Part shown: in pieces, positions 56,172 through 56,524 of the stretch
Position numbering within the stretch: position 1 is the first letter of the stretch
Layout of the letters: the number at the start of each line of letters is the position of its first letter
DNA from: Candidatus Heimdallarchaeota archaeon
Lineage (GTDB): Archaea > Asgardarchaeota > Heimdallarchaeia > Heimdallarchaeales > Heimdallarchaeaceae
Assembly (NCBI GenBank): GCA_019057815.1
Contig: JAHLWR010000021.1
Span: 1 to 64,000, forward strand
DNA length: 64,000 nt
Direction of reading: 5' to 3'
Program-made: the position numbers and the translations under genes
The notes under the pieces: generated by a model
What the model was told of the DNA's origin: nothing
The model's input: only the letters and a program-made list of their open reading frames with translations
Database searches by the model: none

Positions 56172-56524
56172 TGAGTTATTTTTCCCACTTTTCCCACTTA
56201 AGGGTAGTGACGAATAATTTTGAGGACTCTTCCCAACCCAAGAACGTTTAAGGTCGCATCGCATCAAGCAGTAGCGTAGGGGGAGCTTCAAGCTCTGGGA
56301 TTACACCTCCAACACACAGTGTTAGCGGAGGTGAGAGGGTTCATCTCCTCTCCGGGACTCATTACTGAAGACTATGTTATTGAGAACCTTAGGCTCTCAC
56401 TCCAGCTCCGGGTGTAAGTAGATGACTCTACTTTGTCTCTAGCCATTGGCTTAAGACAGTACTTTTATTAGATTTTCCTATAAAAAGCTAACAGAAATAT
56501 GGGAAAAATGGGAAAAAATTAGCA
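56172..56524. mobile_element. Non-autonomous TIR element (MITE-like) with TG...CA ends
   Basis: Left end TGAGTTATTTTTCCCACTTTTCCCA; right end (reverse complement) TGCTAATTTTTTCCCATTTTTCCCA; interrupts a gene. Confidence 0.8.
56200..56457 (-). ncRNA. Putative structured RNA inside the TIR element
   Basis: GC-richer than the flanks, at least six hairpins with minus-strand G-U pairs; TTTTTATA box at 56486-56479, about 22 nt upstream of the first hairpin. Confidence 0.55.

Follow-up and report, generated by a model that had tools for sequence, protein, structure and literature searches.

The 353-bp insert at positions 56172-56524 of the window, by which we mean the whole 64,000-nucleotide stretch of Heimdallarchaeaceae DNA analysed here, is a gene-less deletion derivative of a 1.8-kb solo-tnpB element that keeps the ends, promoter and guide RNA of its parent. 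At a probability of roughly 0.78, we favor the reading that it is an RNA-only derivative of this transposon whose RNA works in trans with the parent TnpB. BLAST searching of this Heimdallarchaeaceae genome (G000; 3.74 Mb, 33% GC, 95% complete) returned six short copies of 350-353 bp, with 92-99% identity to the window copy, plus five long ones of ~1.77 kb that carry an extra 1.42 kb at one point. The extra segment is an ORF of 492 aa that shares the strand of the RNA; three of the five long copies (C40, C10 and C39) have it intact, and in the other two it is frameshifted. Each mini-element corresponds to the first ~69 nt of the parent (left end and promoter) joined to its last 288 nt, which include the final 23 tnpB codons and the right end. 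An earlier sequence-only reading had proposed a mobile ncRNA cassette, or the non-coding part of an RNA-associated transposon with its autonomous partner elsewhere, and the long copies bear this out; it had also suggested looking for target duplications and a transposase-bearing parent, whereas the parent that we recovered encodes TnpB and no transposase, and no duplication was found. The features of the mini-element and its surroundings are as follows.

56171..56525, minus strand: mini-element, 351 bp between two shared AT copies, 353 bp net (block 56172-56524)
56172-56171 and 56525-56524, minus strand: shared AT copies
56500..56523, minus strand: left-end arm, 24 bp, with two 9-bp boxes (56517-56500)
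56479..56486, minus strand: putative TATA box of the parent tnpB promoter, 30 nt before the parent tnpB ATG, its function predicted from the archaeal consensus
56455..56466, minus strand: internal deletion junction, ~1.42 kb of tnpB missing, from alignment of short and long copies
56389..56457, minus strand: last 23 tnpB codons with one internal stop, doubling as the first omegaRNA hairpins
56171..56457, minus strand: predicted omegaRNA scaffold, ~287 nt, placed by the tnpB 3' end and right-end position, folding z and pairing across copies
56357..56362, minus strand: 5' strand of the predicted pseudoknot, AUGAGU, pairing with terminal ACUCAU (56176-56171), 99.3% paired
56173..56196, minus strand: right-end arm, 24 bp, inverted relative to the left arm and also the 3' end of the RNA scaffold
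56155..56170, minus strand: predicted guide from the flank, length assumed to be ~16 nt from known TnpB systems
56524..56527, minus strand: predicted TAM, GCAT here (family consensus VCAT)
56068..56170, plus strand: 5' part of a host histidine-phosphatase gene, ~35 codons (Pfam His_Phos_1; intact in the sister genome G001)
56525..56608, plus strand: 3' part of the phosphatase gene, the 421 bp between its two CATG sites missing

The boundaries rest on the identical junction layout of the six short and five long copies; the plus strand of all 11 has the form Y-ATG ... C-ATG-Y. In the sister genome G001 the site is empty and holds a single CATG, and at three other copies removal of the block brings back ORFs of 233, 425 and 192 aa, with one long copy needing a 1-base offset; together, the single CATG and the restored ORFs indicate that insertion causes no net duplication. 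Identical AT dinucleotides occur at both junctions in all 11 copies while the preceding C is not fixed, and the simplest parse would be 351 bp lying between two AT copies and bounded by 24-bp mirror arms, a layout in which a recombination core and a 2-bp AT duplication look the same by sequence. Within the arms, 17 of 18 positions of 56179-56196 are complementary to 56500-56517, each end carries two 9-bp boxes as short repeated subterminal motifs, and the left end forms no hairpin by itself. The insert's length, coordinates and TG/CA block ends were confirmed on the sequence as originally described, as were the two TTTTCCCA-type boxes at each inverted end.

In the window, the element interrupts the phosphatase gene and has replaced part of it. 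The intact gene in G001 encodes 202 aa and has CATG at offsets 102 and 523, and in the window allele the 421 bp separating these sites have given way to the element. This loss arose either because the left end recombined with the second CATG or through a microhomology deletion after insertion. Contigs of four sequencing runs show 417 other letters across the window-site joint. Just past the phosphatase stop, at 56605-56627, the same kind of comparison shows 68 letters in the contigs of four runs versus 23 here.

We then considered the RNA. The whole element folds better than shuffles on the minus strand (z of -5.1), and without the left end the minus strand still scores -3.05 versus -0.56 for the plus strand, in agreement with the structured minus-strand RNA that had been claimed; the non-coding part of the window copy alone, without the pseudoknot, is no better than shuffles (z of -0.64). 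Across 23 copies, a 77-pair structure is paired in 97.4% of cells, with five pairs changed on both sides, and its score was reached by none of 500 shuffles while slid controls gave 36-46%; covariation is modest, and kinship alone, without structure, can beat such a shuffle test. Because the copies are related, we regard this pair-count evidence as modest; the counts hold within the subfamily, since MAFFT placed the 5' part wrongly when the two mini families were aligned, and in the parents the 5' hairpins fall on coding sequence. The terminal pseudoknot appears to be the stronger structural evidence, as in the Heimdallarchaeum sister family 12 of 14 elements carry a compensatory change to AUGAUU/AAUCAU; a scaffold-end pseudoknot has been described as universal for omegaRNAs (10.1101/2023.11.20.567912). 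Four of the six hairpins first listed hold across the 23 copies, whereas GAGAGG/CCUCUC and GAGCU/AGCUC fit the window copy and are absent from most others, the conserved pairings there being long-range GAGGA/UCCUC and CCC/GGG. A search of Rfam, as had been suggested, gave nothing above noise. The family, initially left unresolved, can now be assigned on the RNA side through the identity of the parent protein: judged from its position, the mini RNA is a TnpB omegaRNA.

The absence of a credible ORF also holds, apart from 56457-56389, which matches residues 471-492 of the parent TnpB at 91% (tblastn). The interior, for which decayed transposase coding sequence had been named as evidence against an RNA, does contain these 69 nt of decayed tnpB sequence. 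Overlap between an omegaRNA and the 3' end of tnpB is normal, so the presence of this segment does not refute the RNA reading.

The copies are conserved up to ACUCAU and no further, and each has a different flank, which places the predicted start of the guide in the flank, at 56170, rather than inside the element. None of the 11 guides has a second perfect target in the genome, and we rejected on this basis the idea that minis aim their guide at a second genomic site. The TATA-like box that had been noted ahead of the hairpins is present at 56486-56479, and in seven minis from three groups it lies exactly 21 nt before the first hairpin. This fixed spacing suggests that a transcript starting with the scaffold has been selected for, and would place the RNA start near 56457.

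These properties bear on the best-surviving alternative, in which the insert is the same deletion derivative behaving as a passive MITE, its RNA kept merely through overlap with the right end and not loaded by TnpB. A 274-bp mini in another genome (G016) lacks the 5' half of the RNA and the window copy has acquired a stop and small changes, as a passive element might. However, ~25 bp would suffice for the arms, yet almost every mini retains ~290 nt; the promoter keeps its 21-nt distance in three groups; and the RNA part is conserved as much as the coding body or more (0.93 and 0.87 vs 0.88). We consider a passive element quite improbable and retain the reading of an RNA that works with TnpB.

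The starred branches of a tree force at least two origins of the minis, but the tree is poorly resolved and gene conversion could mimic such separate origins. One of the three groups with the fixed spacing is a divergent mini family that shares the RNA core; H. endolithica and H. aukensis, whose genomes are complete, together hold ~20 of these omegaRNA-type minis of 300-380 bp (L192-L227; G004 and G007). The RNA of these minis is closer to that of the window mini than to that of the local tnpB elements, and no direct parent of theirs was found. Lone right-end fragments of the family, 20-50 bp long, occur in G000 at C27:90264 (plus strand), beside a feoB-type gene cluster, and at C19:25573 (minus strand), beside a small methyltransferase-like gene.

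Closer inspection of the junctions revealed a bias at the base preceding the left CAT, which is T in 0 of 23 junctions compared to a 35% background (P = 5e-5), and in 1 of ~51 when the Heimdallarchaeum families are added. Given that the element's own end reads TCAT, this avoidance suggests a TAM of VCAT that would discriminate target from self. A comparable self/non-self discrimination, GGG versus CGG, has been described for ISXfa1 (10.1101/2023.08.09.552727). The avoidance of T could also stem from the mobiliser alone. A joint of right end to left end is not listed in the contigs of four runs, an assembly form that drops rare molecules.

The parent ORF is a TnpB by its match to PF07282, and its best solved relatives, by both profile and fold, are Cas12f and TnpB. 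Its named homologs are almost all from Asgard archaea, with the nearest in Heimdallarchaeaceae. In an alignment of 43 homologs, D235, E394, D429 and the zinc-finger cysteines are invariant or conserved, while G341 occupies the position of the canonical RuvC-II glutamate; the RuvC triad, the zinc finger and the TnpB/Cas12f fold are all present, in the rearranged RuvC-II type. A rearranged RuvC site of this kind has been modelled as probably active (PMC10691335), and we predict that the parent TnpB is probably a nuclease as well. The clade is abundant, with 13 and 18 matches in the complete Heimdallarchaeum genomes, and G000 holds 39 TnpB zinc-finger matches that fall into about ten families. 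The ATG...CAT layout recurs in G000 in no fewer than four other solo-tnpB families and in a MITE family of 357 bp, the box sequence being particular to each family, and several unrelated TnpB families with this layout have a T-run ~7-11 bp inside.

The replacement of the canonical RuvC-II glutamate by glycine is what one would expect if the RNA binds TnpB and the rearranged protein merely binds DNA as a roadblock or repressor, or if the minis are decoys that titrate TnpB. We find this very improbable, as neither the alternative glutamate nor the two aspartates vary, the avoidance of the element's own end motif at insertion sites points to selection by cutting, and no guide has a second perfect target in the genome. 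Weakest is the proposal of a TG...CA DDE-type MITE (IS3/IS21/IS30/Mu-like) with an unrelated ncRNA, or of a bridge-RNA cassette, which the ~25-bp inverted arms and the TG and CA at the block ends would fit but which is scarcely credible given that the parent encodes TnpB, no duplication flanks the element, G000 has no IS110 (PF02371), the genomes searched have no match to IS630 or DDE_Tnp_4, and the IS5-like elements have other ends. The TG and CA letters are as the sequence-only reading gave them; their interpretation as DDE termini fails, as they are the halves of a CATG split at both junctions. For this reason, and because neither a flanking duplication nor a DDE element with these ends was found, we rejected a TG...CA DDE element (IS3, IS21, IS30, Mu/Tn7-like), and the TnpB parent and the absence of PF02371 from G000 led us to reject an IS110/IS1111 bridge or seekRNA cassette. 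Even if a DDE mobiliser made a 2-bp AT duplication, the RNA would still be an omegaRNA.

Our preferred reading of an RNA acting with the parent TnpB can be cast as a sequence of steps. The copies themselves show the first two: the mini has lost the tnpB body but retains the two ends, the promoter of tnpB and the complete omegaRNA, and it has moved to at least six sites in G000, entering (V)CAT(G) with no net duplication. In the proposed later steps, the promoter would start transcription at the first omegaRNA hairpin and continue into the flank, yielding a scaffold plus a site-specific guide. TnpB from the intact long copies would load the mini RNA in trans, cut the empty site, where VCAT abuts the guide match, and spare the filled site with its TCAT, such that repair from the filled chromosome restores the mini in a form of restorative homing. 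More speculatively, movement itself may occur by 2-bp-core recombination at AT, catalyzed by an enzyme encoded elsewhere.

We searched for such an enzyme. In G000, no transposase was found flanked by ends like those of the mini, and the end-motif matches examined in the two complete Heimdallarchaeum genomes proved to be solo-tnpB elements, minis, fragments or chance; a DDE transposase between the same ends was found in neither G000 nor the complete genomes. The Y1, IS607, IS5-like and ISH3-like elements of G000 have ends that differ from those of the mini. Family searches covered Y1, IS607-type TnpA, Cas1, IS630, DDE_Tnp_4, DDE_Tnp_1 and, in G000 only, IS110. Y1 TnpA had no match in the complete genome G004, and IS607-type TnpA had none in the two complete genomes and none in cis in close members of the family. 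Stand-alone serine recombinases, by contrast, number two to four in each of eight genomes examined, are ~80% conserved across the family and resemble resolvase-plus-recombinase-domain proteins; one of them has the same neighbour gene in G000 and G007. Short representatives conserved across Heimdallarchaeaceae are located at the following coordinates.

L016:1489-2208
G000 C24 157167-157940
G000 C21 46262-47101
L215:2829-3683

Large serine recombinases act on ~50-bp sites with inverted arms around a 2-bp core, and ~25-bp inverted repeats are equally typical of DDE elements. Joining the ends of the mini would form a ~50-bp site with inverted arms and a 2-bp core, resembling large serine recombinase sites, and we take this analogy as a lead. 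We place a serine recombinase of any kind at about even odds as the mobiliser. The conserved stand-alone short enzyme is the leading, if tentative, candidate, and a lost or unassembled IS607-type TnpA is unlikely; both a DDE enzyme making a 2-bp AT duplication and an enzyme of another kind are doubtful. Equally doubtful, when taken as a whole, is the broader scheme in which Asgard TnpB families and their RNA-only minis, which have mirror arms and an AT core but encode no transposase, depend for movement on a short serine recombinase that has been domesticated and is inherited vertically (a resolvase with a recombinase domain, two to four paralogs per genome), acting on joined ends that form a 24+2+24 attP-like site. 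If a host serine recombinase does move the minis, this would be a new partnership for TnpB. G000 also contains a two-copy element of 1.94 kb with two ORFs (open frames of 330 and 236 aa) at C24:13640-15578 and C38:152835-154772.

The RNA-only, gene-less architecture of a TnpB element is of an already known kind. PATE-like gene-less derivatives of ISGst IS605 elements keep their parent's ends and are mobilised in trans (Meers et al., 10.1101/2023.03.14.532601), and the mini is likewise gene-less, non-autonomous and provided with the ends of a TnpB parent. Like IS200/IS605 elements it makes no target-site duplication; however, those elements have subterminal hairpin ends, a Y1 TnpA and no TIRs, whereas the mini has mirror-image arms around AT and no Y1 TnpA with matching ends in G000 or in the complete genome G004. 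IS607-family elements show no duplication, an identical 2-bp core, repeated 9-bp motifs and a near-end inverted repeat (PMC6188088). The mini shares all of these with IS607, IS1535, ISC1926, ISXfa1 and the CboIStron, and as in ISXfa1 its predicted TAM differs from its own end by the base before the core, but its core is AT and not GG, its arms are equidistant from both ends, and no serine TnpA lies in the element or with matching ends. A distant TnpB relative (30%) does lie behind a serine TnpA in the IS607 layout, with different ends, and the IS607s of Heimdallarchaeaceae have other ends and another TnpB. As in IS1341-type solo-tnpB elements and ISDra2, we find a solo tnpB with an omegaRNA over its 3' end, a flank guide and a scaffold-end pseudoknot; here the protein is larger (492 aa), RuvC-II is rearranged, the scaffold is longer (~287 nt) and the ends are inverted. 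The end structure is thus one that fits neither IS605 nor IS607 fully. A literature search of incomplete coverage found no paper on these elements, and what is new is this end structure, the predicted self/non-self TAM and the fact that no matching mobiliser was found.

The minis provide a natural, precisely delimited candidate omegaRNA, its 5' end set by the 21-nt TATA spacing and its 3' end by the pseudoknot. An omegaRNA with a predicted VCAT TAM, for an Asgard TnpB clade with a Fanzor-like rearranged site, makes the nuclease directly testable, and two complete genomes with dozens of copies, many nearly identical and without a matching transposase, turn the mobiliser into a testable question.

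Two neighbours recur beside relatives of the parent TnpB, neither of them transposase-like: an ATPase of the HerA/DUF87 type and a protein of 1400-1900 aa that has no Pfam match. At five loci (L059:857-3589, L071, L073, L121 and L147) the ATPase, of 900 aa and a paralog of a conserved chromosomal gene, lies immediately 5' of a member of this TnpB clade whose right end is also the same, and it may be cargo. The larger protein is divergently transcribed, multi-copy per genome and arranged head-to-head with tnpB at L118:2-3787 and 15 other Thorarchaeota loci. The aCas1-associated TnpB groups Cas1H-Asgard-1/2 have a downstream GTTCACTCA motif (PMC10691335), and Thorarchaeota relatives of the parent TnpB also carry it; in contrast to those groups, no Cas1 was seen within 4 kb at ~75 loci, by PF01867, which could miss a divergent aCas1. 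Of the Cas1 genes in G000, two lie among CRISPR-cas-type genes and a third is broken. At the Thorarchaeota loci an AGGTCA-like motif often recurs 8-20 nt past the GTTCACTCA end, so a larger element may enclose the guide region there. At L163:6001-8211, a TnpB relative of 736 aa, fused to an HTH region and with an adjoining RNase H gene and small ORFs around it, looks like part of an integrated element. Finally, an IS607 element of G000 (C27:145.9-148.6 kb; serine TnpA plus a 652-aa TnpB) has ~370-bp minis of its own, which keep both ends and have a GC-richer interior.

G000 C8 42394-42767: IS607-element mini
G000 C1 35384-35757: IS607-element mini
G000 C20 11813-12187: IS607-element mini
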